Assembly: GCA_964554645.1 (NCBI GenBank)
Contig: CAZKPK010000002.1
Span: forward strand, 1,788 to 65,787
Direction of reading: 5' to 3'
From: an uncultured Candidatus Saccharibacteria bacterium
GTDB lineage: Bacteria; Patescibacteriota; Minisyncoccia; Phycocordibacterales; UBA9973
Length of the DNA stretch: 64,000 nucleotides
Shown: one piece after another, positions 18,140-61,700 of the stretch
How positions within the stretch are numbered: the stretch's first letter is position 1
Layout of the letters: every line of letters starts with the position of its first letter
Notes under the pieces: model-generated
Told to the model about the DNA's origin: nothing
Databases searched by the model: none
What the model saw: the letters and a program-made list of their open reading frames with translations, nothing else
Program-made: the position numbers and the translations under genes

Positions 18140-18140
18140 A

Positions 18141-18194: not shown

Positions 18195-19853
18195 ATGACT
18201 CAAAAAGAAGCGTTGAATATTTTAAAAACTGGCGCGAATGTTTTTTTGACCGGCGAGCCGGGAGCGGGGAAGACGCACACCGTCAATAATTTTGTGAATT
18301 ATTTGCGCGCCTGCGATGTGGAGCCAGCGATTACCGCTTCGACTGGTATTGCCGCGACGCATATTGGCGGGATGACGATTCATTCTTGGAGTGGCATCGG
18401 CATTAAAACAAAATTGGATAAATATGATTTAGATAAAATTGCGAGCAGTGAATATATTGTAAGGCGTGTTGCTCGTACGCGGGTCTTGATTATTGATGAG
18501 ATTTCTATGCTCTCTATTAATATGCTCGAGATGGTGGATATAGTCTGTCGAGAAATAAAACAAAGCAGTGAGCCCTTTGGAGGAATTCAGATTATTCTCG
18601 TCGGTGATTTTTTCCAGTTGCCACCGATTATAAAAAGAGATTTTACAGAAGAAAAACAAAACAAACTTCTTGTAGACGTTCTTGTAGACGTCGGACGTCT
18701 ACAAGTGGGGAATTTTGCTTATGATAGCGGGGCCTGGGAGCGAGCGCGAATGGTTACTTGTTATTTGACTGAAAAACATCGGCAAGATGATACTGATTTC
18801 CTCTCGGTGCTGGGAGGCATCCGTTCTAACAATGTTTCGCAGGCGCATCGAAGTTACATTACTGCTCGGCATATTCGCGAGAATCAGACGCCAGAAAATA
18901 TTACTAAACTTTTTTCGCATAATGTGGATGTAAATCGGATAAATAACGTGGAACTTGCGAAATTAAAAAAAGAAATTAAATGTTTCAAAATGTCTGGAAG
19001 TGGAAATGATAAAGTAGTGGAGATACTGAAGAAAGGATGTTTATCGCCGGAGAATTTGGAGCTCAAAATCGGCGCGGTCGTGATGTGCACCAAAAATAAT
19101 CCAAAAGAAAGATTTGTCAATGGCACACTTGGCACGGTGACAGGCTACGAAGAATTTAGCGGACACCCGATTATTAAAACTAAGAATGGACGGAGTCTTG
19201 TAATTGCGCCGATGGATTGGACAGTTGAAGAGAATGGTAAAATTCGCGCGCAAATAACCCAAATTCCGCTTCGCCTCGCGTGGGCGATCACGGTGCACAA
19301 AAGTCAGGGGATGAGTCTGGATGCGGCGGTGATGGATTTGTCGCAAGTGTTTGAATTTGGGCAGGGGTATGTAGCGCTCTCACGCGTGCGCAGACTCTCT
19401 GGATTATATTTGCTTGGTTTCAATGAGCAGGCGCTGAAAGTACATCCAGAAATTCTTAAAAAAGATATTGACTTTAAGAAAAGTTCCGAAGAAACAGCGC
19501 GAGTTTTTGGGGAGATTTTAGAAAATGATCTTCAAAAAATACATAATAATTTTGTATTGGCGTGCGGAGGGAAGGTTTTCCACCTCGACCCGATGGTCAT
19601 CGGGTCACCCCTCAAGAGGGGAATTAAAATGGAAAACACAGAGGGCGCGCCGAGTACGGCGCGCCCAAAAGCATTTGCCGAAATCAGAACAAAACACCCC
19701 AACGCTTATCGAAAATGGATGCCAGAGGAAGAAATGGAAATGGTATCACAATTCAAAAATGGAAAATCTATCAGAAATATTTCTGCGCTTTCTGGTCGAA
19801 AAGTTGGCGGCATACGCGCTCGGCTCGTCAAACTAGGATTAATAGAAAAATAA
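18195..19853 (+). CDS. PIF1/RecD-family ATP-dependent DNA helicase with a C-terminal HTH domain
   Basis: It has the Walker A motif LTGEPGAGKTH and the ILVGDFFQLPP motif, plus a C-terminal helix-turn-helix-like tail. The ORF also contains in-frame GC-rich repeat insertions at 18669-18705 and 19566-19670. Confidence 0.7.
   Translation: MTQKEALNILKTGANVFLTGEPGAGKTHTVNNFVNYLRACDVEPAITASTGIAATHIGGMTIHSWSGIGIKTKLDKYDLDKIASSEYIVRRVARTRVLIIDEISMLSINMLEMVDIVCREIKQSSEPFGGIQIILVGDFFQLPPIIKRDFTEEKQNKLLVDVLVDVGRLQVGNFAYDSGAWERARMVTCYLTEKHRQDDTDFLSVLGGIRSNNVSQAHRSYITARHIRENQTPENITKLFSHNVDVNRINNVELAKLKKEIKCFKMSGSGNDKVVEILKKGCLSPENLELKIGAVVMCTKNNPKERFVNGTLGTVTGYEEFSGHPIIKTKNGRSLVIAPMDWTVEENGKIRAQITQIPLRLAWAITVHKSQGMSLDAAVMDLSQVFEFGQGYVALSRVRRLSGLYLLGFNEQALKVHPEILKKDIDFKKSSEETARVFGEILENDLQKIHNNFVLACGGKVFHLDPMVIGSPLKRGIKMENTEGAPSTARPKAFAEIRTKHPNAYRKWMPEEEMEMVSQFKNGKSIRNISALSGRKVGGIRARLVKLGLIEK
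18669..18705. repeat. GACGTC-type palindromic element inside the helicase CDS, in-frame
   Basis: The unit cttgtagacgtt is followed by the perfect 25-nt palindrome cttgtagacgtcGgacgtctacaag. A related palindrome cluster lies at 58012-58075. Confidence 0.55.
19566..19624 (+). repeat. partial copy (D) of the four-hairpin GC-rich element, in-frame within the helicase CDS
   Basis: cccgatggtcatcggg...cacccctcaagaggggaat matches hairpins 3 and 4 of the elements at 41607, 52756 and 58074. It is followed by a 10-bp GC hairpin (gggcgcgccg-agta-cggcgcgccc). Confidence 0.55.
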
Positions 19854-19992: not shown

Positions 19993-20409
19993 ATGAAATC
20001 AAAAGAAGCAAAACCGTCTGAGGTAGGAGATAATAAAACAACCCCAGAGGCAAAGTTAACAAAACAAGAAATCTTGGATCTAATTGAAAAAGCATCTCAC
20101 CAAACTTGGATGAGGCAGGCGCATAGGGACAAAGGAACCAACATGGATAAACTTTCACAGGCAGTGTCAGATGGCGATCGCGAAAGGGCGGCAGATGCTT
20201 GGAAAGAGCTAGAGAAAGAAAAACCAAAAACTCGGGCGGAGGCTGTGACTCTGCTGGCTAGAAGGTCTCACGAAATGTGGTTGGCCCATAAAAGAGTGCT
20301 TGTTTCTACAGAAGAATTTGATCTTAATCCAAATGATCATGACCGCGAGCGGGCAGAAGATATCATAAAAGCGCTTGAAGTTCGCGGAGTCTTATCTTAT
20401 GGAGAATAA
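19993..20409 (+). CDS. hypothetical protein (138 aa, charged and helical)
   Basis: The ORF is open but has no recognisable motifs. Its end overlaps the ileS start. Confidence 0.4.
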   Translation: MKSKEAKPSEVGDNKTTPEAKLTKQEILDLIEKASHQTWMRQAHRDKGTNMDKLSQAVSDGDRERAADAWKELEKEKPKTRAEAVTLLARRSHEMWLAHKRVLVSTEEFDLNPNDHDRERAEDIIKALEVRGVLSYGE

Positions 20410-23400: not shown

Positions 23401-24022
23401 GGCTCCTTTCGCGCCTTTTGCGGCAGAAGATATTTGGCTGAAATTAAGAAATAAAAATGACGCAGAGAGCGTGCATTTAGTTAAATGGCCAAAAATGCCA
23501 AAGAGTTTCTTTGGCATTTTTGGCAGCAAAGAAAATAAAACTTTGGAAAACATGCAAACAGTCAGGAAAATTGTCACCCTTTGCCTTGAAGCCCGCCAAA
23601 AAGCAGGGATAAAAGTTCGCCAGCCTCTGGCTTCACTTAAATACAAAGTTAAAAACAAAAAATTATCAGGCGAGTATCTTGATCTGATAAAAGATGAGCT
23701 TAACGTGAAAGAAATTATCGAAACAGACTTAATTGAAAATGAAGTTGAACTGGATGTTAAAATCACAGAGGAATTAAAACAGGAAGGAAATTATCGAGAG
23801 CTGGCGCGGGCTTTGCAAGATATGCGCAAAAAACTTGGATTAACTCCGGATGATACAATTTCACTTGTTTTTGAAGCGAATGACGCAGGCAAAAAGTTAA
23901 TTGAAAAATTTGCAACCGATCTTAAAAAAACTGTTTTGGTGTCCAAGATAGAATTTGGAAATAATAATGGCGAAGAAATAAAAATAGATGATTTGGTGTT
24001 TAAAATAAAAATTTATAAGTAG
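20399..24022 (+). CDS. ileS: isoleucine--tRNA ligase with two in-frame insertions: a GC-rich segment and a histidine-phosphatase-like domain
   Basis: It has a HIGH-type motif (PPTANGKPGIHHLEARA), WTTTPWTLPGN, LHRPYIDE, DVWFDSG and KMSKSLGN. The likely start is the ATG at 20399. Residues spanning about 22010-22560 read RHGETT...SPFNRGRETA...ITHGG, which is PGM/His-phosphatase-like. Confidence 0.8.
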   Translation: MENNQDKNKKSDATLREESVLEFWRENKIFEKSLKQTEGKKEFIFFEGPPTANGKPGIHHLEARAFKDAIPRYKTMQGFYVRRKAGWDTHGLAVEIQTEKKLGLNSKKAIEKYGIAKFNRECKENVWEYLDVWNKFTERIGFWVDQENPYVTYRNDYIESAWNVLKKINDRNLLYKDYKVVPWCPRCGTALSTHELVQGYEEVKDLSVYVKFKVRGGGNDASAGSLSPSADGALPLGSSACETPRQKHISAPTFVLAWTTTPWTLPGNVALAVGKDIDYVKVKTGNEIYILAKERLSILTEAYEIVGEIKGKDLVGLEYEPLFPFLPAIISEAEKPKLEKAFKIYEADFVNIQDGTGIVHTAVMYGQDDFELGAKVGLPKHHLVNLEGKFIKGTGFLEGRFVKEKDENGKPTIDIDIIKYLTDKNLFYKKENYEHSYPHCWRCHTALIYYARDSWYIKMSDPTIKEQMIKENKGINWEPSYIQEGRFGEWLREIKDWAISRERYWGTPLPIWACESCQKISVIGSIAELKEKTKKSGNTYFVMRHGETTTNLRNLVSTVMNSGSHLTDEGKRKTRGMGELLKKKGIDLIFTSPFNRGRETAKIMQEIIGIGDENVCEDKRLGEMNVKSYEGRTWAEYHNDFPKTPEYFDKAKNGDESLRDIKKRMMDFLFELEEKYQNKKILIITHGGPTWLMAAGVKMFDVENTLAMVRDKENFHYLRNSEIQKLSFTPFPHDQFGDFDLHRPYIDEVPLVCSHLTGSGQACGGKLTRVREVMDVWFDSGCMPFAQDHYPFDAKKILYPADFISEAIDQTRGWFYTLHAIGVLMGRGKVFKNVICLGLLLDAQGKKMSKSLGNVVDPWVMMDKYGVDTLRLWMYSVNQPGESKNFDEKTISLLHQQVFGLLYNVLAFYELYRDKEKEINDRPKSKNILDIWILVKLDELAKLITANLDNYKLLEPTRALRDFIGDLSTWYLRRSRERIKEGSNEAKQTLYFVLKTLATVLAPFAPFAAEDIWLKLRNKNDAESVHLVKWPKMPKSFFGIFGSKENKTLENMQTVRKIVTLCLEARQKAGIKVRQPLASLKYKVKNKKLSGEYLDLIKDELNVKEIIETDLIENEVELDVKITEELKQEGNYRELARALQDMRKKLGLTPDDTISLVFEANDAGKKLIEKFATDLKKTVLVSKIEFGNNNGEEIKIDDLVFKIKIYK

Positions 24023-36501: not shown

Positions 36502-37083
36502 TTACACTCTCTCCACATATTCTCCAGTTTCCGTATTTACGCTAATTACATCTCCTTCACTTATAAACATCGGAGCGTTAAGGGTCGCTCCATTTTCCAG
36601 AGTAATGACTTTCATTCCTCCCTTGGAGGTGTCTCCGCGGACGGCCGGTGGAGCCTCTTTTACTTTGAAATTAATTTTGATGGGCAGAGTAACTTTGATA
36701 ATTTGCTCGATTTCATCTTCATTTTCCCAAATTACAGCTTCTACATCGCCGTTCTGTTTCAGAAATTTTGAAGCATTTCCAATCAGCGCGACATCCAGCT
36801 TGAATCTTTTGCTTTTGTCATTTTTGTCGCAGAACCAATATTCACCCCGGTTATGGTAGAGAAAAGTAATAGGCCTTTTTATTATTTCCGCTTCGTCAGC
36901 TGATTCGGAGACATGAAAAGTGGCGTTGATAGTCTTGCCTGAAATCAGAGTTTTTAGTTTGACCTGATTTTGGGGTTTTCGCTGTTGAGTTCTGGCGACA
37001 TGGGATTCAATAACTTCACAGGGCTCGCCGTCGTAAATTATTATTTTCTTCTCGCGAATTTCGCTGTATTCCAGTTTTGACAT
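36502..37083 (-). CDS. efp: elongation factor P
   Basis: It has the EF-P pattern (MSKLEYSEIREKKIIIYDGEPCEV...KPQNQVKLKTLISGK...). The likely start is the Met at 37083 within the longer ORF. Confidence 0.7.
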   Translation of the reverse strand: MSKLEYSEIREKKIIIYDGEPCEVIESHVARTQQRKPQNQVKLKTLISGKTINATFHVSESADEAEIIKRPITFLYHNRGEYWFCDKNDKSKRFKLDVALIGNASKFLKQNGDVEAVIWENEDEIEQIIKVTLPIKINFKVKEAPPAVRGDTSKGGMKVITLENGATLNAPMFISEGDVISVNTETGEYVERV

Positions 37084-39329: not shown

Positions 39330-41573
39330 TTATGTTTCCTGCCTGCCGGCAGGCAGGTCTCCGGTTTCCGTGCGTTCAATTTTTTCTAATACCTCTCTCG
39401 GTTTTGCGCCTTCTCCCGGACCGATTACTCCGCGTTCTTCCAGTTTGTCCATCAGGCGCGCCGCGCGCGCGTATCCTAATTTTAATTTTCTTTGCAGATA
39501 GGAAGTTGAGGCCTTGCCGGCTTCTATTACGCAAGCCCTCGCTTCCTCATACAATTCATCATCTTCTTCAGAGTCTTCATCATACAAGCTTTCTCCGCCC
39601 AGGGCGGATCCGCCTTGGGCGGAAAAAATACTCTTATCAGCCGAAATAGAGCCTGTAGTCAGGGTTATCTCTCCCAATATTTCATCTTTGTAAGCGTCCG
39701 CTAGATAATTAACAACCTTTTTAACTTCGGTTTCTGAAATAAACGCGCTCTGCAAGCGTTCTGGTTGAGCGTCGCCCGAGGCATAGAGCATATCGCCGGC
39801 TCCCAAAAGTTTCTCTGCACCGCCAGCATCCAAGATAGTGCGCGAGTCCACTTGCGAAGAAACTTTCAGGGCGACGCGGGCTGGGATATTCGCCTTGATC
39901 AAACCAGTGATGACATTTACTTCCGGGCGCTGGGTGGAAATTATCAAGTGTATGCCCACAGCTCTGGACATCTGAGCGAGGCGGACAATAGCCGATTCCA
40001 GCTCCCTAGGATAGGAACTCATTATGTCTGCTAACTCGTCTATTATGATGATGATATACGGCAGGCGATCCCTAAACGCCTCACTTTGCGAGGCGTCGGG
40101 CGAACCGCCTTTGGCGGTTTTAGCCACACCACTGTAGACATTGTTGTGATAAGATTCTATATCTCGCACCGATTCTGCTTCCAATATATCGTAACGGCGG
40201 TCCATTTCCTTGGCCGCCCATTTCAAAGCTAAAATCGTTTTTTTAGGATCGGTTATGACCGGAGTCAATAAATGCGGAATGTTGTTGTAAAGGGTTAGTT
40301 CTACCCGTTTTGGATCGATCAGTATGAATTTTAGGTCATCCGGCCCGTTTCGGTATAAGAGAGAAGTAATCATAGAATGAATAGCGACTGATTTTCCGGA
40401 GCCGGTTGTTCCGGCGACTAAGCAATGAGGCATTTTGGCAAGATTGCCGAAGATTGATTTGCCTCCGATATTGCGGCCGAGAGCGATCGTCAGAGGTTTG
40501 GAAGAATTTTGGAATTTGTCGTCGGCCAGAAGAGTGGCCAGACCGACCAAAGATTTTGTCCTATTTGGAATTTCAATGCCGACCAAGGATTTTCCCGGGA
40601 TTGGCGCTTCTATTCGTATCGGGTGCGCCGCCAGCGCAAGCGAGAGATCATTCTGCAGAGCGACGATGCGCGAAAGTTTCATTCCTTCGGCTGGTTTCAA
40701 TGCATAACGAGTAACGGTCGGTCCGACTGTTACTTCGTCCATTTCCACTTCGATGCCGAAGTTCAAGAGCGTGCGCTTTATTATGTTTGCGTTCGCTTTT
40801 ATGTCGCCCGTATTCGGTTTTCCTTGATCTTCTTCCAAGAGGGACAACGGGGGAGGGACGTAGGTGGAAACTAATCCGCCGCGCCTCTTTTTAATCGGAA
40901 TTTCTTCTTCTTCATCTTCCCCTTTTTTTATACCCAATGCTTTTTTTATTTTTTCACCAGTAGTTTCCGTTTCTCTTTCTTCCCTAAACACTTCTTCTGA
41001 AGCGTCGGGCGATCCAGCTTCGCTGGATTTAGCCTCCTCCTCTTCCACTTTTCTTCTGGTAATAAAATCCCAAATTTTTTTGAAAAATGGCAGGAGATCC
41101 AATTTTGTATCGAATATCACCAGAATTGAAATTATTAAAATCGCGCCGAGAAAAATAATACTGGCATATACATCAAAGAGGGAAACAAGAGGTATTGATA
41201 AAACTTCTCCTAATAATCCGCCGGAACGCCTGCCCGCCAATTGGGCGGGTGAACCTCCCGCGATGTCTATCAAACCCAATCCAGAGAGAAGAAACATTAC
41301 CGCGCTGATCGCGCTTCTCCATCCGATTTCTGGAGTTTCTGATCTGACAAATGAAGACCCCAAAAGAACAAGCAGAGCCGGTAAAAGAATATAGCCGACA
41401 CCCAACAAGTAATAAAGTTTTTCATAAATAAACTTGCCTGCGATTCCCGTCATATCAAATGCGGACATCAAAAAAAATAATGCCAAAACAAAAAAAACTA
41501 TTGCCATAATGCCATGTTTGGTATTGCTCTTTAGTCCGGGACCTTCCTGATTTTTCTCTTTCTTATTTGCCAT
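39330..41573 (-). CDS. ftsK: DNA translocase FtsK/SpoIIIE
   Basis: It has N-terminal TM helices, a low-complexity acidic linker, a motor domain with the Walker A motif GTTGSGKS, and a C-terminal gamma-like winged helix. Confidence 0.85.
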   Translation of the reverse strand: MANKKEKNQEGPGLKSNTKHGIMAIVFFVLALFFLMSAFDMTGIAGKFIYEKLYYLLGVGYILLPALLVLLGSSFVRSETPEIGWRSAISAVMFLLSGLGLIDIAGGSPAQLAGRRSGGLLGEVLSIPLVSLFDVYASIIFLGAILIISILVIFDTKLDLLPFFKKIWDFITRRKVEEEEAKSSEAGSPDASEEVFREERETETTGEKIKKALGIKKGEDEEEEIPIKKRRGGLVSTYVPPPLSLLEEDQGKPNTGDIKANANIIKRTLLNFGIEVEMDEVTVGPTVTRYALKPAEGMKLSRIVALQNDLSLALAAHPIRIEAPIPGKSLVGIEIPNRTKSLVGLATLLADDKFQNSSKPLTIALGRNIGGKSIFGNLAKMPHCLVAGTTGSGKSVAIHSMITSLLYRNGPDDLKFILIDPKRVELTLYNNIPHLLTPVITDPKKTILALKWAAKEMDRRYDILEAESVRDIESYHNNVYSGVAKTAKGGSPDASQSEAFRDRLPYIIIIIDELADIMSSYPRELESAIVRLAQMSRAVGIHLIISTQRPEVNVITGLIKANIPARVALKVSSQVDSRTILDAGGAEKLLGAGDMLYASGDAQPERLQSAFISETEVKKVVNYLADAYKDEILGEITLTTGSISADKSIFSAQGGSALGGESLYDEDSEEDDELYEEARACVIEAGKASTSYLQRKLKLGYARAARLMDKLEERGVIGPGEGAKPREVLEKIERTETGDLPAGRQET
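39591..39629. repeat. CCGCC double-hairpin element inserted in-frame in the C-terminal low-complexity region of ftsK
   Basis: ttctccgcccagggcggatccgccttgggcggaaaaaat closely matches the intergenic copy at 42846-42882. On the coding strand it encodes FSAQGGSALGGE. Confidence 0.55.
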
Positions 41574-41606
41574 GAAAGTATTTTAGCATATTTTTAGAAT
41601 TTAAAA

Positions 41607-41699
41607 TTCTCCTCTTTGAGGAGTACCCGTTACAGCGGGGGAGGTGGAATATATCCACCCCGTCCCGATGAACATCGGGGCACCCTTCAAGAGGGGAAT
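41607..41699 (+). repeat. four-hairpin GC-rich structured element, copy A (candidate sRNA or repeat family)
   Basis: The element reads ttCTCCTCtttGAGGAG - GGGGGAGGTGGA-loop-TCCACCCCG - CCCGATGaaCATCGGG - CCCTTCaaGAGGGGaat. A TAGAAT -10-like hexamer lies 6 nt upstream. Copies occur at 52756, 58074 and 19566. Confidence 0.55.
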
Positions 41700-41740: not shown

Positions 41741-42502
41741 ATGTTAGCAGGAGATAAAAATCTTAAAGACTCTACTAAGGACACGAATATTTCTTTAACG
41801 GACATTTCTTTTTCTATTTCTTATACTAAGACACATAAGCTTATTACAGCGCTTTATATGGTAACGGACATAATGGACCGAGGTGAGCCGCTTAGAAATA
41901 AATTAAGGACATTAGGGGTAGAAATTCTATCAGACACTATATCAATGTCAAGGTTGAACCTTGATAAAAAGATCCAAGAAGTTTTGTCCTTTATAGATGT
42001 AGCTTTAACTTTGAATTTTATTTCAGAGATGAATTGTGCTATCTTAAAAAAAGAGTTTCTTGAATTAAAAACATCTATTGGACATCTAGATGTAAAACCT
42101 ATGTGGCTTGAAGAACTTTTTTCCGTTCCTCAACCTAAAGGACATTATATTGGACAATCATTAAGGACACGAATTGGTGTCCAAAAGGGAAGTACTTTAA
42201 TGAAGGCTCTGTCTGATCTAGAAGCAAAACCTAATATATTAGGTCTTGCTTCACATTTTGGTTTTAATATATTAAAAAAACAAAGGCAAAATGATATAAT
42301 CGATATTGTAAAAAGTAATGGAGGAAACGCTACTATAACGGACATTAGAACAAAGATAAATACTGAGATCCATAAATCACTTGCCTCTTGCAGTGAAAAA
42401 ACATTACAAAGAGAATTAATGTCCATGACAAAAGACGGTGTCCTTAATAAGACAGGTGAAAAACGCTGGAGCAGGTATTTTATCAAGGTTCTAGGTTCAT
42501 AG
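41741..42502 (+). CDS. hypothetical protein with a possible C-terminal winged-helix domain
   Basis: It has no catalytic motifs. The C-terminal segment (ITDIR...TLQRELMSMTKDGVLNKTGEKRWSRYFI) resembles wHTH DNA-binding domains. Confidence 0.4.
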   Translation: MLAGDKNLKDSTKDTNISLTDISFSISYTKTHKLITALYMVTDIMDRGEPLRNKLRTLGVEILSDTISMSRLNLDKKIQEVLSFIDVALTLNFISEMNCAILKKEFLELKTSIGHLDVKPMWLEELFSVPQPKGHYIGQSLRTRIGVQKGSTLMKALSDLEAKPNILGLASHFGFNILKKQRQNDIIDIVKSNGGNATITDIRTKINTEIHKSLASCSEKTLQRELMSMTKDGVLNKTGEKRWSRYFIKVLGS

Positions 42503-48243: not shown

Positions 48244-48600
48244 ATGTCAAAAAAAAATATTGTAATAGCAATTATAGTAGTTGTGATTGTGATAGGAGTT
48301 GGTTTTTGGTTTAATAAAAAGACTGTGGAGAATGTTTATTCTGTGGTGTATATGACGACAGGGGAAGTATATGTCGGCAAATTAACAACTTTTCCCGAGT
48401 TAGAGCTTAAAAATGCCTATATCTTACAAGTAGTTAAGGATGAAAAAGACACTACTAAGAACAATTTCCAGTTGAATCCTATAAAGGACGCTCTTTGGGC
48501 GCCGGAGAGTATGCATCTCATAAAGGACAATGTCGCTTTTTTTGGGACCCTCTTGTCCGATAGCGCGATTGCTCAAACTTTGGCGGAGAAGGGAAAATAA
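48244..48600 (+). CDS. small membrane-anchored hypothetical protein
   Basis: It has an N-terminal TM helix (IVIAIIVVVIVIGVGFWF). Confidence 0.4.
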   Translation: MSKKNIVIAIIVVVIVIGVGFWFNKKTVENVYSVVYMTTGEVYVGKLTTFPELELKNAYILQVVKDEKDTTKNNFQLNPIKDALWAPESMHLIKDNVAFFGTLLSDSAIAQTLAEKGK

Positions 48601-48668
48601 AGAATTAGGTTTTAGTCACTAGGTTCTAGCTTCTAGTATGTTACTAGTTACTAGCACCTAGAAACTAG
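48601..48668. repeat. CTAG-rich intergenic array
   Basis: It contains cactaggttctagcttctagtatgttactagttactagcacctagaaactagcacctaa. Confidence 0.5.
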
Positions 48669-51583: not shown

Positions 51584-51629
51584 ATATACGGGATTTTTCG
51601 CGAAGCTCTCTAGGTTGAATCCCGTATAT
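51584..51629. promoter_or_regulatory. perfect 12-bp inverted repeat (atatacgggatt...aatcccgtatat) with a 22-nt spacer, overlapping the promoter (gtatatataat) of the downstream gene
   Basis: Seen directly in the sequence. Confidence 0.5.
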
Positions 51630-51647
51630 ATAATCTTAAAAAACAAA

Positions 51648-52748
51648 ATGATTAAAAAATTAAAAATTGGTTTGTTGGTGGCTGTATTAACCTTGGCTGT
51701 CGGAGTCGGCTCCGCTTCTGCGGCTGACTTGATTTTCAGCGTGGATACGAATGTTACCATTGGTAGCGCCACCTACACTATTGCGAGCGGTTCCCAGGCG
51801 ACTACCATTGCTCCAGGCGCCTCCTCCATTGAAGTTGTGATTCCCGCCGATGTCTTCTTTACTTTCAAGTCAGCGGACAAATACACACTCAATAGTTCTT
51901 ATGGCGCTATGCAGTGCGGCGCGTCTTTCAGTTCTATCACTATAGAACGCGCTGGGACTTACACCATTACCCCGGACACTAATGCCGTATGTACTAGCGG
52001 TAGCGGTGGTACGCCCTCCGGCGGCTCGGCTCCTTCAGGTAGCGTAGCCCCAGCGGCTACTCCAACCGCTCCAGTCGTATCTGTAGCTCCTCCGGCTTTG
52101 GTTGTTCCGGATTTAGGCTGTACCGGCGGAGCTTTTAGCACGACAACAGGCAAAGCTTGCGCGGCGGCTACGGTTACTCCTGCCACTCCGGCTACCCCAG
52201 CAGTTCCGGGAGTAACTTCTGCCACTCCCGCTACCCCGGCAAAAGTCTACAACTTCGGCACCGCTACCTTGAAAAATGGCAGTAAAGGCGAAGCGGTCAA
52301 GGAATTACAAAGATTTCTGAATGCCAAACTGAATCTTGGTTTGGTAGTTGACGGAGCTCTAGGTCCAAAGACGATTGCCGTGATCAAACAATGGCAATCT
52401 GACAATGGTCTAGTGGCTGACGGTCTCATCGGCGCTAAAACAAAAGCGATGATGAACTCACAGGCTGATACAGCTACAACCCCAGCTACTGCTCCTTCGG
52501 CAAGCTCAGGATCTACGACCTACAACTTCGGCACCACTACTCTCAAAAACGGCAGCCGAGGCGAAGCGGTCAAGGAACTGCAGAGATTCTTGAATGCAAA
52601 GTTGAATCTAGGCTTGTCCATAGACGGAGCGCTCGGTCCAAAGACGATTGCCGTGATTAAACAATGGCAATCGGACAATGGTCTGGTAGCTGATGGTCTC
52701 ATCGGAACCAAAACAAAAGCGATGATGAACGCGCAGGCGGGTCAGTAG
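51648..52748 (+). CDS. secreted protein with two C-terminal peptidoglycan-binding (PG_binding_1-like) repeats
   Basis: The likely start is the ATG at 51648; the track's 51615 start is a TTG. It has a signal peptide (MIKKLKIGLLVAVLTLAVGVGSASA) and two nearly identical 70-aa repeats (GSKGEAVKELQRFLNAKLNLGLVVDGALGPKTIAVIKQWQSDNGLVADGLIG). Confidence 0.7.
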   Translation: MIKKLKIGLLVAVLTLAVGVGSASAADLIFSVDTNVTIGSATYTIASGSQATTIAPGASSIEVVIPADVFFTFKSADKYTLNSSYGAMQCGASFSSITIERAGTYTITPDTNAVCTSGSGGTPSGGSAPSGSVAPAATPTAPVVSVAPPALVVPDLGCTGGAFSTTTGKACAAATVTPATPATPAVPGVTSATPATPAKVYNFGTATLKNGSKGEAVKELQRFLNAKLNLGLVVDGALGPKTIAVIKQWQSDNGLVADGLIGAKTKAMMNSQADTATTPATAPSASSGSTTYNFGTTTLKNGSRGEAVKELQRFLNAKLNLGLSIDGALGPKTIAVIKQWQSDNGLVADGLIGTKTKAMMNAQAGQ

Positions 52749-52755
52749 AGTTTAA

Positions 52756-52848
52756 TTCTCCTCTTTGAGGAGTACCCTTTCAGGGGGAGGTGGACGAATT
52801 TATCCACCCCGCTCCGGCTTTTTGTCGGAGCACCCCTCAAGAGGGGAA
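52756..52848 (+). repeat. four-hairpin GC-rich structured element, copy B
   Basis: It has the same architecture as copy A. Hairpin 3 is replaced by a compensatory variant (ctccg-gctttttgt-cggag). A TAGAGT hexamer lies 4 nt upstream, and an intrinsic terminator follows. Confidence 0.55.
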
Positions 52849-52861
52849 TAGATTCTACAAA

Positions 52862-52887
52862 AAATCCGCTTTCTGGCGGATTTTTTG
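52862..52887 (+). terminator. intrinsic terminator (aaaatccgc-tttctg-gcggatttttt)
   Basis: It has a stem of 7-8 bp followed by a T6 run. Confidence 0.65.
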
Positions 52888-52910
52888 TGTGCTTGCAGTT
52901 TTTATTTTGA

Positions 52911-53446: not shown

Positions 53447-53457
53447 ACCGTCCGAAG

Positions 53458-53466
53458 TTATCCACA
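53458..53466 (+). promoter_or_regulatory. TTATCCACA box within a conserved promoter module
   Basis: The about 45-nt module (ttatccacagg-taag-gtgg-ataataaattagtggtataataaa) is nearly identical to the one at 58649-58695. It includes an extended -10 (tgGTATAAT). Confidence 0.5.
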
Positions 53467-53648
53467 GGCTAAGTGTGGTATAATAAATTAGTGGTATAAT
53501 AAACTTATTATTAGAAAAATAACGAGCATAGCGAGATAGTTTTCTAACCCCGTCAAATAGCTTTTGTAAAACAAAAGCTAAAATCCGAAGGATTTTGTTT
53601 GACATGGGTAAAGATTTTTATATTTACTACGTTCATTAAAAATCATTT

Positions 53649-53918
53649 ATGGAGAATATTAATAAAAAAAATATGTGGATAGGGATTATTGTTTTAGTGG
53701 CAGTAATAGCGCTGGGTCTTTGGTATTCCGGCGCGAGGTACGATCAAGGATATGAAGCGGCTATCGCCGATATCAAAGCCCAGCAAGAAGAAGCTGGCAA
53801 CAAAGCGGCTCAAGCGGCATCCGATGAAGCTAATCCTTTCAAAGTATCCAATCCTTTGCAAGGGGTTGAAGCCAATCCGTTTGAAAAAGCCAAGAAAACT
53901 TTAAATCCGTTTGATTAA
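53649..53918 (+). CDS. small membrane-anchored hypothetical protein
   Basis: It has an N-terminal TM helix (MWIGIIVLVAVIALGLWY). Confidence 0.4.
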   Translation: MENINKKNMWIGIIVLVAVIALGLWYSGARYDQGYEAAIADIKAQQEEAGNKAAQAASDEANPFKVSNPLQGVEANPFEKAKKTLNPFD

Positions 53919-53949
53919 AACAAATTTTATTATTAGCAAATATATTCGT

Positions 53950-56900
53950 ATGATTTTAACTAAAAGAATAAATCTATTTGGGTTAGCCATAGGGCTGGTA
54001 TTGGTCTCGTTACCGGTGTCAAGCGTCGCTTTAGCTCAAACCGAAACTGTCGCTGTCTCCGCCGATGTTCCCAAAGAACTAGTTTCCTTGGCGCAAGATT
54101 TAGGCTGTCAAACTAAAGTTGAATGCGCTGAAAAATTTGACGCGAACATAGAGCAAGGCATCGCTTTGGCTCAAAAATATGATATCTATACTCCGGAACA
54201 AGAAAAAGTGGCCGCTACTTTCAAGACAGAAGTTTTGGAAAGATTACGTGGAGTCAGTCAGGATAATTTTGAGGAAGAAATCTTGGTTTTGGCCAATAAA
54301 ATTTTAAAAGAAAAGCCGGCCTTAGCTAGGACTATAAGCCTTACTCGGCAAACAGTAAATGCGGCTGAAACGATTATAAATACCGTTAAAGAAGCCGGTG
54401 TGGACATTAGAGTTTGTCAAAAATCGCCGGAAGACTTGTCGCGTGAACAGTTGATTGCCTGCGTCAAGGCCGGCAATAATTTATCCAGCAAAGAAAAAAC
54501 AGCTGGAGATTATATTCCAAAAGGAAATGTAAAAGCGGAAGAGGCGGGACGAATGCTTGACCTTGAAGATTCACTCCTAGCCGGAGAATATTCTAGTTTG
54601 GGTAAGATTAACGCTGAAGAAGCTGGACGAATTTGCCTGAAGCCCGGTTCAGAATCTATCGCCGATTGCGACCAAATTGCCCAAAAATTCTTCGGCAATG
54701 AAGGGGTAAAGCAGTTGCAGGAAGCCAGGCAACAAACAACTCGTATCAAAGAATACTATACGAAGGGCATAGAAAAAATGGAATTAGTAACGCCGGACGG
54801 GCAGAAACTAATCGGTAAAGGCGCAATAAAGAATGCCTGTGATCTGGCTTTTGAGAAAAATAATTTGGGCTTAGCCAGAGCCTGCGGAAATTTTGCCGTC
54901 AAGAACGGATATGCTTCCCAGGAAGAAATTGAAAGCGGGTTAAAACTTTTGGAGTCTTTTTCGCAAAAAGCGGGGAATGTCAATTTTGACGATTGCCGTT
55001 TCAATCCGGAGTCCTGCCGGGAGTTTCTGCCGGATGAATTTCGTCCGCAATTTGACTCCCAATTTGAAATTTTCAGAATAATGTCCGAATCCATCGGTTT
55101 TGACCCGGCGCGCTGTGAAAATTCTTACGACCCCGATATCGGCAAGCGATGTTTGGAAGGCGCTAAAAAGGCTTTGAGCCGGGTGGAAGAAATTGCCAAG
55201 AATTCTCCGGAAGCGCGCAGAATTGTCGATGAAATCAGAGGTCATATTGCTGAAGGAGAGAGAATGACGGAAAAATTGGGCGAGTTTCATCAAGATTCGG
55301 ACAGAGGAGGAAATGCCGGACCCGGAGGCTGTCGCGGGCCGGAAGAATGTTTCAAATACTGCACCCAGCCCGGAAATTCAGCCGAGTGTATTTCTTTTGG
55401 AGCGAAAAGTCAGATTTTTGACAGAGACACAGCCGCCCAAAAATTTAATATGGTAAATGAAAGATTTAACACCTTACCAGGACAATACCCGGGATTTACC
55501 GAGCCGGGAAAAGGAGATTACAGGTCTTATCCAAATGGACCGGATTATTCAGATCGGTCTAGGCAACAACCTGGATTTGATCAGTATCCTCAATACCCTT
55601 ACCCTTACCCACCACAGCAGCCAGTCGGTCCAAGTCCGGAATGTTTCGCGGCCGTCAGTAGTGGCGATTTTACTAAAGCCAAAATTGCCTGCTCTTCCAC
55701 AACGGAAAATTATCCTAAACCAATAGCCGAACCGTTCCCTGTTTGCCCGGCCTATTCTATGCCGTCACCTTGTCCGGAAGGCCAAATGCGGCAAGCGGCT
55801 AGCGACGCCAAGGGGTGTGTGGCTTACGGCGCCTGCACGGTGATAGAAAATTACAAACCGATTGACACCACTCCAAAATCTTGTCCTTCTGGTCAATATT
55901 GGGATGGTCGGTCTTGTGTTGCTCAACCGACAACCCAGTGCTCTTCCGGCCAGTGGTGGGATCCAGCCACCCAAGCTTGCCGATCTTCCACAGTTCCGAT
56001 GGTAGGTTCATGCGATTATTCTACCCAATACTGGAAAGCCTCAACTAGCCAATGCCAGCCCCGAACAAATTGTTATGACACAGCTAATTCTGAATATAAC
56101 TCTCAAGAATGCCAGGGCGTGCGCGGTTCAACGACAGTTAGTTATGGTTGCGGAAGTTTGACTACTCAAGCTACCTGCCAGGCAAGTCCCGGTTGCGGTT
56201 GGGCTAACGGCGCCTGCGGGGGAAACACCTCTACAGTTCCGGACCCAACTTATAGCAGTTGTCCTGCAAATATTAAAACTCTGCTTGGCGATGGCTGTCA
56301 TTCTATGTCCGTCGGCTACTTTAACAGCGGGATGACTTCTTATGTCCTCTTTGGCAGTACGGCCGTTAATAATTGTTCAACTTCGTCGGTTACTGGTTGT
56401 AGCGGTAACACAACTACCACTACCTGTCCGACCGGTCAATGGTGGAATGGAACTGCTTGTACATCATCTACATCTACATCTACATCTACAACCAGTCAAT
56501 GCTCTCCAGGGCAGTACTGGTACACTCCGCCTGGAGGCGGGGCAGGATACTGCACAGGCAATCCTAGCAGTAGCGGCGCTTGTCCAGCTGGATATCACCC
56601 TCATGGCGAGAGCGGCGGGTTCTGCATGAATGACCAAGAAAATTACAGCGGGACCTGTTATAATTCCGCCGGCACATCCACGATCACTTGTCCGCAACAG
56701 ACTTATACCCCGCCCGCCAGCGGCTGTTCGTCTGGACAATACTGGTACACGCCACCCGGAGGCGGGGCAGGATACTGTCAATCCTCATCTACAACCACCT
56801 GTCCTTCCAATCAATGGTGGGATTCTAGTACTGGCGCTTGTCGTGATAATTCATCAGCTTGCGCGCAAGCCGGCGGCACTTGGAATTCTTCAACCAATTA

Positions 56901-57528
56901 TTGCCAAATGCCGACTTGTCCCTCTGGTCAGTATTGGTTTACTCCTTCAGGCGGAGGCGCAGGATACTGCATGTCTAACACTACCAGTACTACCACTTGC
57001 GCTTCAGGACAGTACTGGAATGGTTCGTCTTGTGCAAGCTCATCTACAACTTCAAGTGACGGAGCTACTGCTTGCGCTCAAGCAGGTGGAACATGGAACA
57101 GCAGTATGACACCTCCCTGTCAAATGCCGAATACAACCACCAGCGGCGCATCTTCCTGTTCTTCCGGACAATACTGGAATGGTTCAGCCTGCGTAAGTTC
57201 AACTCCGTCAACTTACACTTCGCCTTCATACACTCCGCCTTCAGATACCTCAACATACACTTCTCCACCAACCTATACACCTCCTTCAGACACTTCTGGA
57301 ACATATACTTCACCACCCTCTTACACCCCGCCTCCAGACACCTCAACCTACACCCCGCCTCCATCTGCTATGATTTTGTGCTCGCAAACTGGTGGAAATT
57401 GGACCGGCGCCGCCTGCAACTTGGCCAAAAATATATCTGACCAAAAAGCTTACCTTAGCTATTTCCAAAAAGATTCTGACGGATTGTTAGCTCAAGTCTT
57501 TGGAGCATTTGCTGATTTATTCAGATAA
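53950..57528 (+). CDS. large secreted cysteine-rich repeat protein
   Basis: The likely start is the Met at 53950, followed by a signal peptide. It has many repeats of a Cys-loop motif C-x-[ST]-[GN]-Q-[YW]-W-x(3-12)-C (for example CSPGQYWYTPPGGGAGYC), and a Pro/Thr/Ser/Tyr-rich C-terminal repeat (YTSPPSYTPPSDTS). Confidence 0.65.
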   Translation: MILTKRINLFGLAIGLVLVSLPVSSVALAQTETVAVSADVPKELVSLAQDLGCQTKVECAEKFDANIEQGIALAQKYDIYTPEQEKVAATFKTEVLERLRGVSQDNFEEEILVLANKILKEKPALARTISLTRQTVNAAETIINTVKEAGVDIRVCQKSPEDLSREQLIACVKAGNNLSSKEKTAGDYIPKGNVKAEEAGRMLDLEDSLLAGEYSSLGKINAEEAGRICLKPGSESIADCDQIAQKFFGNEGVKQLQEARQQTTRIKEYYTKGIEKMELVTPDGQKLIGKGAIKNACDLAFEKNNLGLARACGNFAVKNGYASQEEIESGLKLLESFSQKAGNVNFDDCRFNPESCREFLPDEFRPQFDSQFEIFRIMSESIGFDPARCENSYDPDIGKRCLEGAKKALSRVEEIAKNSPEARRIVDEIRGHIAEGERMTEKLGEFHQDSDRGGNAGPGGCRGPEECFKYCTQPGNSAECISFGAKSQIFDRDTAAQKFNMVNERFNTLPGQYPGFTEPGKGDYRSYPNGPDYSDRSRQQPGFDQYPQYPYPYPPQQPVGPSPECFAAVSSGDFTKAKIACSSTTENYPKPIAEPFPVCPAYSMPSPCPEGQMRQAASDAKGCVAYGACTVIENYKPIDTTPKSCPSGQYWDGRSCVAQPTTQCSSGQWWDPATQACRSSTVPMVGSCDYSTQYWKASTSQCQPRTNCYDTANSEYNSQECQGVRGSTTVSYGCGSLTTQATCQASPGCGWANGACGGNTSTVPDPTYSSCPANIKTLLGDGCHSMSVGYFNSGMTSYVLFGSTAVNNCSTSSVTGCSGNTTTTTCPTGQWWNGTACTSSTSTSTSTTSQCSPGQYWYTPPGGGAGYCTGNPSSSGACPAGYHPHGESGGFCMNDQENYSGTCYNSAGTSTITCPQQTYTPPASGCSSGQYWYTPPGGGAGYCQSSSTTTCPSNQWWDSSTGACRDNSSACAQAGGTWNSSTNYCQMPTCPSGQYWFTPSGGGAGYCMSNTTSTTTCASGQYWNGSSCASSSTTSSDGATACAQAGGTWNSSMTPPCQMPNTTTSGASSCSSGQYWNGSACVSSTPSTYTSPSYTPPSDTSTYTSPPTYTPPSDTSGTYTSPPSYTPPPDTSTYTPPPSAMILCSQTGGNWTGAACNLAKNISDQKAYLSYFQKDSDGLLAQVFGAFADLFR

Positions 57529-57585: not shown

Positions 57586-57996
57586 ATGAAAACATCGGGC
57601 CAAAAGGAGGAAAAAATGAATACTGCAGAAACAGAGCCGCTCCAACCGGTTTTCCAGATTCTAAGGGAAACAGCGAAAAAATTTCGTTCTTTGAAGGCTG
57701 AAGCAACCACAGCACTTTTGGATCAAGAAAATCCTACGGGCTATAAAGAAAGGTTAGAAGAACGGGCTAGGCTTTTGGTTAATCTACCTGAAAGTTTAGA
57801 AAGCGTCCTAAAGCAAATTGACCCGCAAGTCAAAAATAAAATAGAATCTTATGTGAAAATATTTGCTACTATAGCACAGGAACGTATTGATATTGGAGAA
57901 GAGGTTGGGCTTGCTACATTATTAGTTGACAAGGGGGCGAGAAAAGACGATAAAAATAACCTTGAGAAATTAATTGACTCTCTAGAAAACAAATAA
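57586..57996 (+). CDS. hypothetical helical/coiled-coil protein (136 aa)
   Basis: The ORF is open but has no recognisable motifs. Confidence 0.35.
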   Translation: MKTSGQKEEKMNTAETEPLQPVFQILRETAKKFRSLKAEATTALLDQENPTGYKERLEERARLLVNLPESLESVLKQIDPQVKNKIESYVKIFATIAQERIDIGEEVGLATLLVDKGARKDDKNNLEKLIDSLENK

Positions 57997-58011: not shown

Positions 58012-58075
58012 GTTTGTAGACGCCGGACGTCTCCAAGCAGACGTCTTCAAACATTCGGACGTCCAACGTCCGAAT
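58012..58075. repeat. cluster of GACGTC-containing palindromes/hairpins, including a 10-bp stem cattcggacg...cgtccgaatg
   Basis: gtagacgccggacgtct is related to the in-frame palindrome at 18681-18705. Confidence 0.5.
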
Positions 58076-58155
58076 GAGGAGTACCCTTTAGGGGGAGGTG
58101 GAAAATTCATCCACCCCGCCCCCGATGAACATCAGGGCACCCCTCAAGAGGGGAA
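58074..58155 (+). repeat. four-hairpin GC-rich structured element, copy C (hairpin 1 replaced by the preceding GACGTC hairpin)
   Basis: It reads gaggagtaccc...gggggaggtgga-aaattca-tccaccccgcccc-cgatgaacatcaggg-cacccctcaagaggggaat and is followed by a terminator. Confidence 0.55.
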
Positions 58156-58165
58156 TCTATTAACA

Positions 58166-58199
58166 AAAAATCCCTCATCCGCCAGCTGGCGGAAGGGTT
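58166..58199 (+). terminator. intrinsic terminator (ccctcatccgccagc/gctggcggaaggg stem followed by T6)
   Basis: Seen directly in the sequence. Confidence 0.6.
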
Positions 58200-58291
58200 T
58201 TTTGTTTTGCCCTTGACTTTTAAATTACTTTGTATATACTTTAGGTATTCTCCTTCGTTCTGAGCTAATACAGAACTACGGACGGACAAGT

Positions 58292-58561: not shown

Positions 58562-58648
58562 TCTTTGTGAGCTATTTTCTTAATTCCAGATAGGGTTTAA
58601 GGCGCTAGCGGTTGGGGAGAGGCAGCTCCCTTATTAAAGTAGACGCAC

Positions 58649-58657
58649 TTATCCACA
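58649..58657 (+). promoter_or_regulatory. TTATCCACA box within the conserved promoter module of the giant surface-protein gene
   Basis: See the entry for 53458-53466; it is the same module. Confidence 0.5.
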
Positions 58658-58700
58658 GGGCAAGGGTGGCGTAATAAATTAGTGGTATAATAAAAAGATT

Positions 58701-61700
58701 ATGAAGAAAATATTTTCTCGTTTTTGTTTTGCAGTAATTTTATTAATAATTTTTTCGTTTTCCTTTTTTAATATTTCTGATGCTATTGTAACTACTCTTA
58801 TCACCGATCTCACTCCGTTGTTCGGTGGACAAAAGCTCAAAGCTTCTAGTGATAATACCGCGGTGCTTAAAGTACAATTTGGTTCTGACTCAAATGCTGA
58901 AACCTTAACTTCAATTAAAGTAACTTTTGTTTCGGTTACTGGTTGTGCTGGTTGTTGGACCTCTGGAGCTGCTACTTCGTCAGAGTTGGCTGATTTAGCC
59001 ACAACGAACGGTGGTATTCAGCTTTGGAAAGATGCGGGCGCGGCCGGATTTCAAGGCCAGGGGACAGACACACAAGTCACTTTAGCCGCCACTCCGCAAT
59101 ATGCTTCAGCTACAACTTTCATTATTACTCCCGCTTCCGCGCCAACGCTTACGACTGATGATATTTATTTTATTGTTCTTAAAACTGATTCAACTGGATT
59201 AACTCATAACAACGCCTTCACTATCGCGGTGGCGGCCAATGGAGATATTATCACTTCTGCCAGCAATCCAGTTATCACTGCGGTTACTAGTCGCACCATT
59301 ACTATTGATACTACCGCTCCAACATTAACTTCCGCTTCTAGTTTTCCTGCCAATGGTGCCACCGTGCCTATCAGCACTTTTCCTCATATGACTTTTTCGG
59401 AACAACTGGATCAAACAACTTTAACTTCAGCTAATATTTCTTTAGCTGCCGGAAGCGCTGTTAATGGCGCGATTCGTCTATTTCCAGACGGATTTGATTT
59501 TGTGGTTTCCAGTCCACCTACTTATGCGATCGGCTCCAGATTTGCCAAACTGACCACCGCTGCAACCGCTTTTTTCCAAATTGCCGGCACCAATCCGATT
59601 AGCCCGCAAGGAAGTTATTCAGCGCCAGTGGTGGGCGATATTGTAATTTCCCAAAGAGAAACTTTTCCAGCTGAGCTTGGTTTAGTCACTGCTTCTGGTT
59701 TAACTTCCGGCACATTTGCGGTCAACGGTTTTCCAGCCTTCAATTCTCAACAGATTACCAAGGTTGCCATACCAGCCGCTACCGGCGCTGTCACTGCGTC
59801 TACCGTGGTAACCACTGGGGACATTATTGTAGTAAATACCACAGCCAATCCGACTTCACAAAGATATGACTGGCACATTGTAACTACTGGCGCAGCTGTG
59901 AATCATGCCACAGACTTAAGATTAGATGGAGCAAGCGGTGTGCCTGCATATGTTTCCGGTTCCAGATTTTCAACCATTGCTCCGAATGACACTTCAGCAA
60001 TTAATGCTTCAAATGCAGTGGTTGGAACCGCCAATAGTGGGATTGATTTTGTTGTTGGCGACTTAGTTTTTGCTAAAGTTACTGCCAATGCTGACAATCT
60101 TGGCGTTTATGCTTGGCATGTTGTTACTACAGCTCAGAATATTACAACCGATATTGCGCCAACCACTTTGCGTTTGGATGGCAATACTACCGGCGCTCCG
60201 ACTTTTGTCGCCAGTTCGCAAGTTTCTAAAATTACTCCAGCGGCGCAGGGTATTGCGGAGGGCGCGGGCGTTGATACCGCTACCGCTTTTTCTCTAGGAG
60301 ATATAGTTTTGGCGAAAACGACAGCCAATGCCTCAAACAATAACGCTTACAACTTTCACATTATTAACAATGGAGCAACCGGCGCAAACTCCGCTAGCTT
60401 GCGCTTTGATAATGTGCCGGGAAACTTAATCACTGCCACCACTTATACTTTGACGATGACGACCGGAATTAAAGACTCGGCTGGTAATCCTTTGGCTGCC
60501 AACAATACTGTAACCTTTACTACTGGTTCTACCAGTACAACGAATACTACACCGCCGTTTATTCAGTCCAGCCAGCCACAATCGGGCTCACAAACTCATC
60601 CGATCAGCGCGCCAATTAAGTTAACTTTCAGCGTGGATATGAAGACGACAGACGGCAACAGCGGCGCTAACTCTGTGACTAATCCCGCCAATGTAGGATT
60701 GTTTACTGATAATTTTGGTACGCCGGGGACCGCCATTGCGACCACCAATACATATGATTCCGCCAGCAAAACTGTAACCATCACTCCTTCAACCGCTATG
60801 AACAGTGGAGTGGCGGCCAATCTGACTGCTAGCACTGCTTATGTAGTCAAGGTGCTTCCTGCTACGCAAAGCAGTACGGGTACCGCTTTCCCCCCAACCC
60901 CGCCTTTACCTTTCAAAACTCCTTCCGGCGCGGCGGATACAACCGCGCCAACAGTGCTGGGAGTAAATCCTGCCAATGCGGCCACCGGCGCGGCTCTCGG
61001 CACGGTGGTGACCGCCGGTTTTTCCGAGGATATAAATCCAGCGACCATTACAACTTCTACCGTTACCTTAAGCGGGGGGATTACTGGCACTGTTACCTAT
61101 AATCCGCAGAGCCGTAGCGCTTCTTTTGCTCCTTCTGCCGCGCTTACCGCAAACACCAGTTACACCTTTACGATAGTTTCCGGGGCGAGTGGAGTAAAAG
61201 ATTTGTCTGGCAATGCTCTGGCCTCTAACTACACTTCCACTTTTACCACTACCGCGACCGCTGACGAAGTCAAACCCTTTTTGACATTTGCTAATGCGGA
61301 TGACTTTAGCGTGGCGGTTACTTTCTCCGAACAAGTGAAGTCCGGCGGAGGTCCGAATGCAGCCGACAATATTGCCAACTATACTTTAGAAAGTCCGGTT
61401 GGTTCAACTATAGCGCTGGGAGGAAAGACTGTTACCTATGAAGCAGGAACAAAAACTGCGCGTATTACAGGTTTAAGTTTGCAAAATGGCGCTACTGCAA
61501 CTTACAAAGTGACAGTTCTTCCATTTGTTCAAGACTTGGCTGGTAACGTGATGGACGACACCAATGTTCCTCCGCCTAGGAACACTCAATTTGGAACAGT
61601 TGCCAGCGCTTCCGCTACCGGTGGTCAAATCGGTCCGGGCGGGGGCGCGATTGATGCCTCTATGCAAGGAATGAATCCAAGTCGAGTGATGCCGATGAGT

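Follow-up and report, generated by a model that had tools for sequence, protein, structure and literature searches.

Are the GC-rich, hairpin-forming sequences scattered through an AT-rich Candidatus Saccharibacteria genome small RNA genes, or are they copies of a repeat that behaves as DNA? The question arises from a contiguous stretch of 64,000 nucleotides (hereafter, the window), in which an initial annotation had recognised four related copies, A to D, and proposed that they represent either a small RNA of a new type or a family of repeats. The presence of four such copies is far beyond chance: the 3' 19-mer CACCCCTCAAGAGGGGAAT has four matches in the window (one with a mismatch) against zero expected from shuffles, and a covariance model, R1, built from 24 cores that were all taken from other genomes, recovers all four right cores with E values of about 1e-9 (Table 1). 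A further R1 match at 36614-36651 was rejected as native EF-P coding sequence. Our preferred answer, to which we assign a probability of roughly 0.7, is that the repeat is a gene-less, MITE- or REPIN-like derivative of a cassette carrying a DUF559 nuclease gene, and that it acts as DNA.

The building block of the family is a core of ~42 nt composed of a C-rich box, (T)CCACCCCG, a hairpin of variable sequence and CACCCCTCAAGAGGGGAAT, in which a second box is fused to a fixed hairpin. In the full-length copies, the left half, AATTCTCCTCTTTGAGGAGTACCC-hairpin-GGGGGAGGTGGA, aligns with the right half, TCCACCCCG-hairpin-CACCC(C/T)TCAAGAGGGGAAT, once one of the two is reverse-complemented, which makes copies A and B inverted dimers of the core. 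Rather than the four hairpins in a row described initially, each of them holds five local hairpins: one at either end, two of variable sequence, and a central one to which both halves contribute. The outermost 15-16 nt constitute a terminal inverted repeat, which is also the closing stem of the closed cloverleaf predicted as the minimum-free-energy fold. Both dimers fold far better than shuffled sequences, as RNA (-53 kcal/mol, z about -6.9) and as DNA (z -5.1/-5.8 on the + strand and -3.9/-4.7 on the - strand). Copy B starts 6 nt past the stop codon of a PG-binding protein gene (51615-52748), and its variable hairpin, CTCCGGCTTTTTGTCGGAG, is unlike that of copy A. Copy C lies downstream of the ORF at 57586-57996; a database look-up found no record for the protein adjoining this copy. 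Copy D, correctly described at the outset as a partial in-frame copy, is a solo 3' core within a Pif1 ORF.

Table 1. Copies of the repeat and associated features in the window (energies and z values are for the terminator hairpins).
Feature	Position	Strand	Score	Remarks
Copy A	41605..41699	+	R1 right core, E 3e-9	Full inverted dimer
Copy A, left half	41606-41647		R1 on - strand, E 0.011	Reverse-complement core
Copy A, right core	41655-41699			Follows the central loop, ATATA
ftsK	39330-41573	-		Neighbour of copy A, divergent
ORF	41741-42502	+		Neighbour of copy A, divergent
Copy B	52754..52849	+	R1 right core, E 3e-9	Full inverted dimer
Copy B, left half	52755-52793		R1 on - strand, E 0.004	
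Copy B, right core	52804-52849			
Terminator hairpin after copy B	52856..52889	+	-20.1 kcal/mol, z -8.0	Intrinsic terminator, outside the repeat
Copy C	58076..58156	+	R1, E 9e-9	Dimer without the 5' terminal arm; begins at GAGGAGTACCC
Copy C, right core	58111-58156			
Terminator hairpin after copy C	58162..58206	+	-23.7 kcal/mol, z -4.6	Intrinsic terminator, outside the repeat
Copy D	19580..19624	+	R1, E 2e-9	Solo right core (3' core only)
Pif1-family helicase ORF	18195-19853			Host of copy D, in frame in a linker; peptide ..HLDPMVIGSPLKRGI..

Two details of these copies deserve a record of their own. The variable hairpin of copy B (52811-52829, CTCCGGC-TTTTT-GTCGGAG) recurs in other genomes (L114, L065); in L114 it reads CTCCGAC-AAAAG-GTCGGAG, with the loop reverse-complemented relative to copy B and the flanks in unchanged orientation, and the hairpin seems to flip or to be exchanged as a module. 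Immediately 5' of the shortened copy C, two other hairpins occupy 58021-58076, of which the one abutting the copy, a perfect ATTCGGACG-TCCAA-CGTCCGAAT, combines a 9-bp stem that begins with AT and a loop of 5 nt, the shape of canonical CGTC-family REPs, and stands in place of the missing 5' arm.

The family extends well beyond this genome. Scanning one genome per species and demanding an exact match, we found the 19-mer at at least 118 loci in many phyla, where roughly ten were expected by chance. Conservation of the 19-mer among these matches holds by construction, because an exact match was demanded; the CACCCC box and hairpin upstream of it, which lie outside the query, accompany it in 133 of 143 instances among the matches listed. 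These listed matches come from Paceibacterota, Nomurabacteria, Saccharibacteria and Gracilibacteria, and also from Thermotogaceae, a termite-gut Bacillota MAG, Ignavibacteria/Kapabacteria, Nitrospirota, Desulfobulbaceae, Sulfurovum and Bacteroidota (including the isolates Pedobacter mendelii and Parasediminibacterium JCM 36343), some of the phylum labels being dependent on MAG binning. The range of the family is not limited to Patescibacteria; the full dimer with a TTCTCCTC-type left half occurs, among the matches listed, on essentially only Patescibacteria-type contigs. A search for a recurrent neighbour protein such as a RAYT, TnpB or integrase around 139 instances, at at least 118 loci, returned no family at more than four loci. 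Copy A is present in four of four other contigs of the same strain, recognised by an identical neighbouring protein, and among these contigs we saw neither a transposition event nor strain-level polymorphism. The strain is also present in Logan runs SRR12113420-31.

Many copies reside inside genes. Of 24 full-length relatives, 12 lie in long ORFs, ten in sense and two in antisense orientation. In RsmA/KsgA, full-length copies occupy one common site in three genomes, and in a fourth the copy adjoins a truncated gene; further full-length hosts are PurD (in two genomes), PheT, MurB, Tgt, RNase R and an FAD oxidase, while solo cores occur within TatD, an agmatinase-like protein and a second RsmA site. 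The RsmA of L019 carries two copies, the second at a site without counterpart in orthologues. Presence or absence of the insert differs among orthologues. The core is free of stop codons in all three forward and two reverse frames, so that copies can survive in genes as short Pro/Gly-rich inserts, and two reading frames are in fact used by the in-gene copies (..TPQEGN.. and ..PLKRG..). At the Pif1 locus, where the best homologues of the window protein are 79% identical and point to a host of the Nomurabacteria/Paceibacterota type, many of 70 orthologues carry ..STPTQASPLKRGI.. exactly at the site of copy D, and in others the linker is plain and rich in Lys. In its variable hairpin, copy D is like copies A and C of its own genome and unlike the Pif1 orthologues, which suggests replacement or homogenisation within the genome. 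Twenty nucleotides past copy D, at 19643-19666, the Pif1 ORF holds an unrelated, perfect GC palindrome in frame, GGGCGCGCC-GAGTAC-GGCGCGCCC; it encodes GAPSTARP, a peptide present in most Pif1 orthologues too, and may be an old hairpin insert or a real motif.

These in-gene copies in Patescibacteria are the same phenomenon as the Rickettsia RPEs: palindromes lodged in frame in the housekeeping genes of a bacterium that is small, AT-rich and dependent on a host, where they are tolerated as brief peptide insertions in conserved genes and are missing from some orthologues. They differ from RPEs, compared here by description only, in lineage and apparently in sequence, and in that a candidate parent cassette with a nuclease gene can be named.

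The lead to this cassette came only through ORFs lying between inverted cores, which pointed to locus L036. There, a 137-aa ORF belonging to DUF559 (PF04480, E 1e-24; nearest solved structure 3hrl, E 2e-9) is bracketed by the inverted cores ATTCCCCTCTTGAGGGGTG-hairpin-ACGGGGTGGATGG and ATCCACCCCG-hairpin-CACCCCTCAAGAGGGGAAT, and the outer ends of this unit are those of the window element. In this single case, a 21-nt direct repeat, CCAAGTTTTTGGTGTTGGAGT, lies about 9 nt outside each cassette end (positions 1-21 and 564-584 of L036), being either a long target duplication or a piece of a larger repeat. We then turned the sampling around and gathered 80 metagenome loci by protein similarity only, with an alignment of four DUF559 proteins as the query. 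In an R1 search, 36 of these 80 gene-first loci have a core within 150 nt of a DUF559 gene end, and 68 of 87 R1 matches (E below 1e-3) fall in the 14% of bases adjoining the gene (binomial p 2e-40). Cores are found at 24 of the 27 closest relatives in the sample; around L053 and L060, which represent a more distant DUF559 subfamily in Nomurabacteria, no flanking R1-type cores were found. The window itself has no DUF559 gene in its 64 kb.

Two arrangements recur. 'Tails-out' pairs of cores flank the DUF559 gene on both sides at 16 loci and often sit in frame in large host genes, including type IIG/N6-methyltransferase-like proteins, while 'tails-in' pairs, at about 6 loci, are free-standing: their upstream core offers a Shine-Dalgarno-like GAGGGG about 10 nt before the ATG, and their downstream core supplies the DUF559 stop codon (TTC CCC TCT TGA). 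At L148, a left half of the window type (TTCTCCTCTTGAGAGGAGTACCCCGCAGGGGGGAGGTG) stands 12 nt ahead of the DUF559 ATG. When the ORF is removed from L148, L128, L123 and L036, the cassette ends align colinearly with copies A and B, and on each of the contigs L126, L128 and L178 a DUF559 unit occurs together with a gene-less dimer. Two loci from this sample merit separate mention. In L123 (334-2145), an HsdS protein, the specificity subunit of a type I restriction system, has an entire DUF559 domain, flanking cores included, inserted in frame after the central conserved region and before the second target-recognition domain, at one common site in four contigs (L123, L124, L125 and L132). In L087 (1808-2212), a DUF559 homologue adjoining cores has in-frame TGA codons at conserved Gly positions and one in-frame TAG; either the cassette reaches alternative-code lineages (Gracilibacteria-type code 25), or this copy is decaying.

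The bracketing of DUF559 genes by inverted repeats is broader than the R1 sequence. Flanking inverted repeats scoring at least 16 occur at 52 of 74 DUF559 loci as against 1 among shuffle maxima, and 27 of 44 loci without R1-type cores still have one. The arm sequences differ and the design is one, a C-run/G-run hairpin with a second copy of one arm. Among cultured organisms, Sphingomonas parapaucimobilis YK209 has 33-nt arms around a DUF559 gene (protein WP_347093239.1) between sufB and sufC, Deinococcus aetherius has 35-nt arms abutting the gene (WP_264778003.1), Pseudanabaena galeata has nested arms of 55 and 44 nt, its DUF559 domain being part of a 1621-aa CDS, and Picosynechococcus PCC 7002 has 17-nt arms (WP_041444102.1); the design is less clear in the flanks of Neisseria and Azospirillum. 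R1 gives no score to the proteobacterial, cyanobacterial and Deinococcus flanks, and the likeness is thus one of design, not of sequence. Another palindromic family with the same hairpin-plus-box design, CTCCCTCTCCTTAACAAGGAGAGGG + TTGGGGTGAGGTG, was seen at L100 (near a 19-mer match) and L069 (3527-3570), nested in the central loop of a dimer or beside cores, and sequences similar to it flank DUF559 in Neisseria and Deinococcus. Consistent with genes bracketed by inverted repeats, 'DUF559 domain-containing protein' was 14-fold enriched among predicted targets of programmed inversion (Milman et al., PMC9881135).

Whether the repeat acts as RNA or as DNA can be judged from its variable hairpin, H3, which takes about 100 different sequences among the matches listed. 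The compensatory change first noted in this hairpin is real and gains weight once copies are added: in the gapless subset, double changes affect 5/5 pairs, 0 of 500 shuffles reach the observed covariation and 95.8% of cells are paired, against 79.8% in shuffles. G-U makes up 3.5% of H3 pairs, compared with 26% in the best hairpins of shuffled spacers. A hairpin that covaries and yet rarely uses G-U looks like a DNA palindrome and gives no sign of RNA-specific selection; the U-G wobble of copy A, cited initially as RNA-level evidence, is a single substitution that proves nothing. The closing stem and central hairpin are invariant in 24 full-length copies and so are uninformative on covariation, lending none to the idea that the copies are paralogous, independently transcribed small RNA genes of about 100-140 nt. 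That idea draws on the very stable predicted fold, the strong covariation of H3, the strong intrinsic terminators correctly noted after B and C, and a + strand closing stem with a conserved U-G that is a C-A mismatch on the other strand; we nonetheless regard it as very improbable. The -10-like TAGAAT and TAGAGT reported ahead of A and B are not supported, as a promoter scan gave three weak matches at A against 1.0 +/- 1.0 expected and none at B, where TAGAGT is an overlap with the stop codon of the upstream gene. Copy A, between divergent genes, has no terminator, copy D is within an ORF, and half of the full-length relatives lie in coding sequences, on either strand. The shared orientation of the copies is true of the window and not of the family, in which intergenic cores relative to both neighbours are co-directional in 23 cases and anti-directional in 21. 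Searches of the window and of eight related loci against Rfam found nothing that reached gathering thresholds, and E-value thresholds added only noise, in agreement with the earlier impression that no known RNA family is involved; and the sequence of the repeat also makes up the ends of a protein-coding cassette. The repeat family thus stands, and independent transcription is, on the grounds of promoters, orientation, in-gene copies and G-U content, not supported. A weaker RNA role, in which inserted 3'-UTR copies stabilise or process the upstream mRNA in cis, is compatible with the preferred reading and in our view unlikely. B and C lie between a stop codon and a terminator and so are probably transcribed as part of a 3'-UTR, in three genomes a copy occupies an identical position upstream of rplJ, and REPs of other bacteria lie for the most part after genes and have been proposed to act as RNA (PMC3733652); yet B and C are already followed by a real terminator hairpin, A and D are outside 3'-UTRs, and there is no orientation bias.

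Selection on the encoded peptide fares worst of the readings we weighed. A linker kept for its usefulness (..STP..PLKRGI.. or ..NSPLEEYPLGGGG..TPQEGN..) would be in keeping with in-frame copies in many proteins, but the copies are read in two different frames and also on the reverse strand, the proteins that host them are not related to one another, roughly half lie between genes and conservation is at the level of the nucleotide and the palindrome, and we give the idea hardly any credence. The main alternative within the cassette reading concerns the order of events. The dimers could have come first and have spread by other means, with DUF559 as a free-standing homing endonuclease gene that inserts in their central loop: the gene sits exactly at that position, an arrangement that fits homing into pre-existing dimers equally well, other palindromes are nested there (as in L100), and Vsr-like folds include a proven homing endonuclease family (PMC3424549; PMC2677866). 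We hold this to be improbable, as the hairpin-plus-box ends of DUF559 genes hold across very different repeat sequences and phyla, as one would expect of a gene and ends that evolve together as a unit, and the cores come in two arrangements and supply GAGGGG and the stop codon.

Under the gene-less-derivative reading, then, the starting point would be the cassette seen in relatives, in which a DUF559 (Vsr-like PD-(D/E)XK) endonuclease gene of ~0.4 kb stands between two inverted cores. In copies A and B, both ends of such a cassette would be joined, with only 5-8 nt between them and the ORF gone; C and D are shortened copies. The repeat is, or was, presumably mobile as DNA, with the conserved box and hairpin as the putative recognition site of the nuclease, and the variable hairpin would stay palindromic for a DNA-level reason. 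Mobilisation would most likely depend on a DUF559 protein acting in trans on gene-less copies, in the manner of RAYT with REPINs.

REP/REPIN-RAYT is indeed the closest known system. Short, GC-rich, imperfect palindromes in many copies, single or as inverted dimers that fold into one larger hairpin, and found mostly after genes, are common to both, and the small single gene bracketed by its own repeats recalls a REPtron. Here, however, the GTAG tetranucleotide at one end of REPs is absent and a CGTC/GCC tag is found instead, the flanked gene encodes a DUF559 PF04480 PD-(D/E)XK nuclease and not a Y1 HUH transposase, many copies are intragenic, and the core joins a fixed hairpin to a second, freely varying one. 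MITEs such as Correia, ERIC and RUP resemble the repeat in length (about 95 nt), in terminal inverted repeats, in the existence of shortened copies and in ends that match a longer, gene-carrying element; unlike them, about 25 full-length copies have no consistent target-site duplication at their flanks, and the parent ORF is a DUF559/Vsr-like nuclease from no recognised transposase family. Vsr-like (EDxHD) homing endonucleases provide a precedent for a Vsr-fold nuclease as a selfish gene, but there is no intron or intein context here and the insertion sites are many and unrelated. In fungal mitochondria, GC-rich hairpin elements (GC clusters or double-hairpin elements) invade AT-rich genomes, including coding regions, and the present repeat resembles them as a GC-rich hairpin element in an AT-rich genome. 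CRISPR-like and TIGR-array readings were dropped since copies are dispersed rather than arrayed, attC because the conserved ends do not pair like attC R'/R'', a terminator reading for want of a consistent T tract, and a tRNA-derived reading for want of a D- or T-arm; the window contains no tRNA or tmRNA genes.

A special comparison is owed to the CGTC-tagged REPs, among which Di Nocera et al. 2013 (PMC3733652) include Neisseria dRS3 and Rickettsia RPE-4/-6. As defined there, an unpaired CGTC lies 5' of a palindrome with a ~3-nt CCA tail, the stem is 8-9 bp long with A-T pairs in the first two positions and the loop is 4-5 nt; these REPs, the paper states, 'apparently lack a dedicated transposase'. 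In our family, CGTC precedes the variable hairpin in 80 of 133 (60%) and CCA follows it in 93 of 133 (70%) of the matches listed, inverted dimers are common, intragenic copies occur, replication and repair genes included, and the phyla overlap (Thermotogae, Bacteroidetes, Chlorobi-like and Sulfurovum). The stems, on the other hand, are mostly 3-5 bp and up to 7-8 bp, with loops of 3-5 nt, as against stems with an AT start (ATTC..GAAT) in that definition, and, in this comparison with the definition as worded, CACCCCTCAAGAGGGGAAT is an extra conserved module outside it. We do not file the element as a CGTC-tagged REP member, given that its stem length misfits the definition.

Elements of the REP/MITE/RPE-like kind are already known; what seems to be new is the association with DUF559 cassettes and, in Patescibacteria, the residence of copies in frame within genes. 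In the searchable, incomplete literature we found no link of DUF559 to flanking repeats, nor any report on the motif string or on REPs or MITEs in Patescibacteria. Short palindromic repeats rank with the most common features of bacterial genomes that still want an explanation, and for the majority, CGTC-tagged REPs and the in-frame elements of Rickettsia among them, we know of no mobilising enzyme; nor, to our knowledge, has any transposase or homing activity been demonstrated for DUF559. One palindromic repeat family is now tied to a specific nuclease family of unknown function, by a statistical association that emerges from gene-first sampling and by the same design in cultured organisms, and both 'what moves repeats' and 'what does DUF559 do' become directly testable. 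Tentatively, and with the odds somewhat against so wide a claim, the proteins of the very large DUF559 family in general may be the nucleases of widespread, ~0.5-kb selfish cassettes bounded by hairpin-plus-box inverted repeats, which would mobilise or home into REP/RPE-like palindromes in trans, those of CGTC type included, and which can also live in frame in host genes such as HsdS, type IIG methyltransferases and, in gene-less form, housekeeping enzymes of Patescibacteria. The ultra-small genomes of Patescibacteria tolerate selfish inserts within essential genes, and annotation is affected through spurious low-complexity peptides, gene fusions and calls of giant 'DUF559 domain-containing' proteins.

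Several other features of the window also came to light. An isoleucyl-tRNA synthetase at 20375-24022 has a complete His_Phos_1 (histidine-phosphatase) domain (aa 549-712) in frame inside its catalytic domain, and an R1 search around this insert gave no flanking cores. A CTAG-rich intergenic repeat, AAATTAGGT..TAG..CTAGGTTCTAG..CTAGAAT, lies just past gene ends at 3279-3330, 18129-18180 and 48588-48639 and is a different repeat family. From 58683 to 64000, where GC is higher (45-53%), a single ORF of at least 1772 aa continues beyond the end of the window, and a reading of the 59-64 kb region as non-coding or rRNA was rejected in favour of this one giant ORF. Two copies, 81% identical, of a 69-nt repeat (53453-53521 and 58644-58712), with a DnaA-box-like TTATCCACA and two GTGGTATAAT boxes, are upstream of the giant gene at 53911-57528 and of the ORF that starts near 58683, and are probably a shared promoter region.
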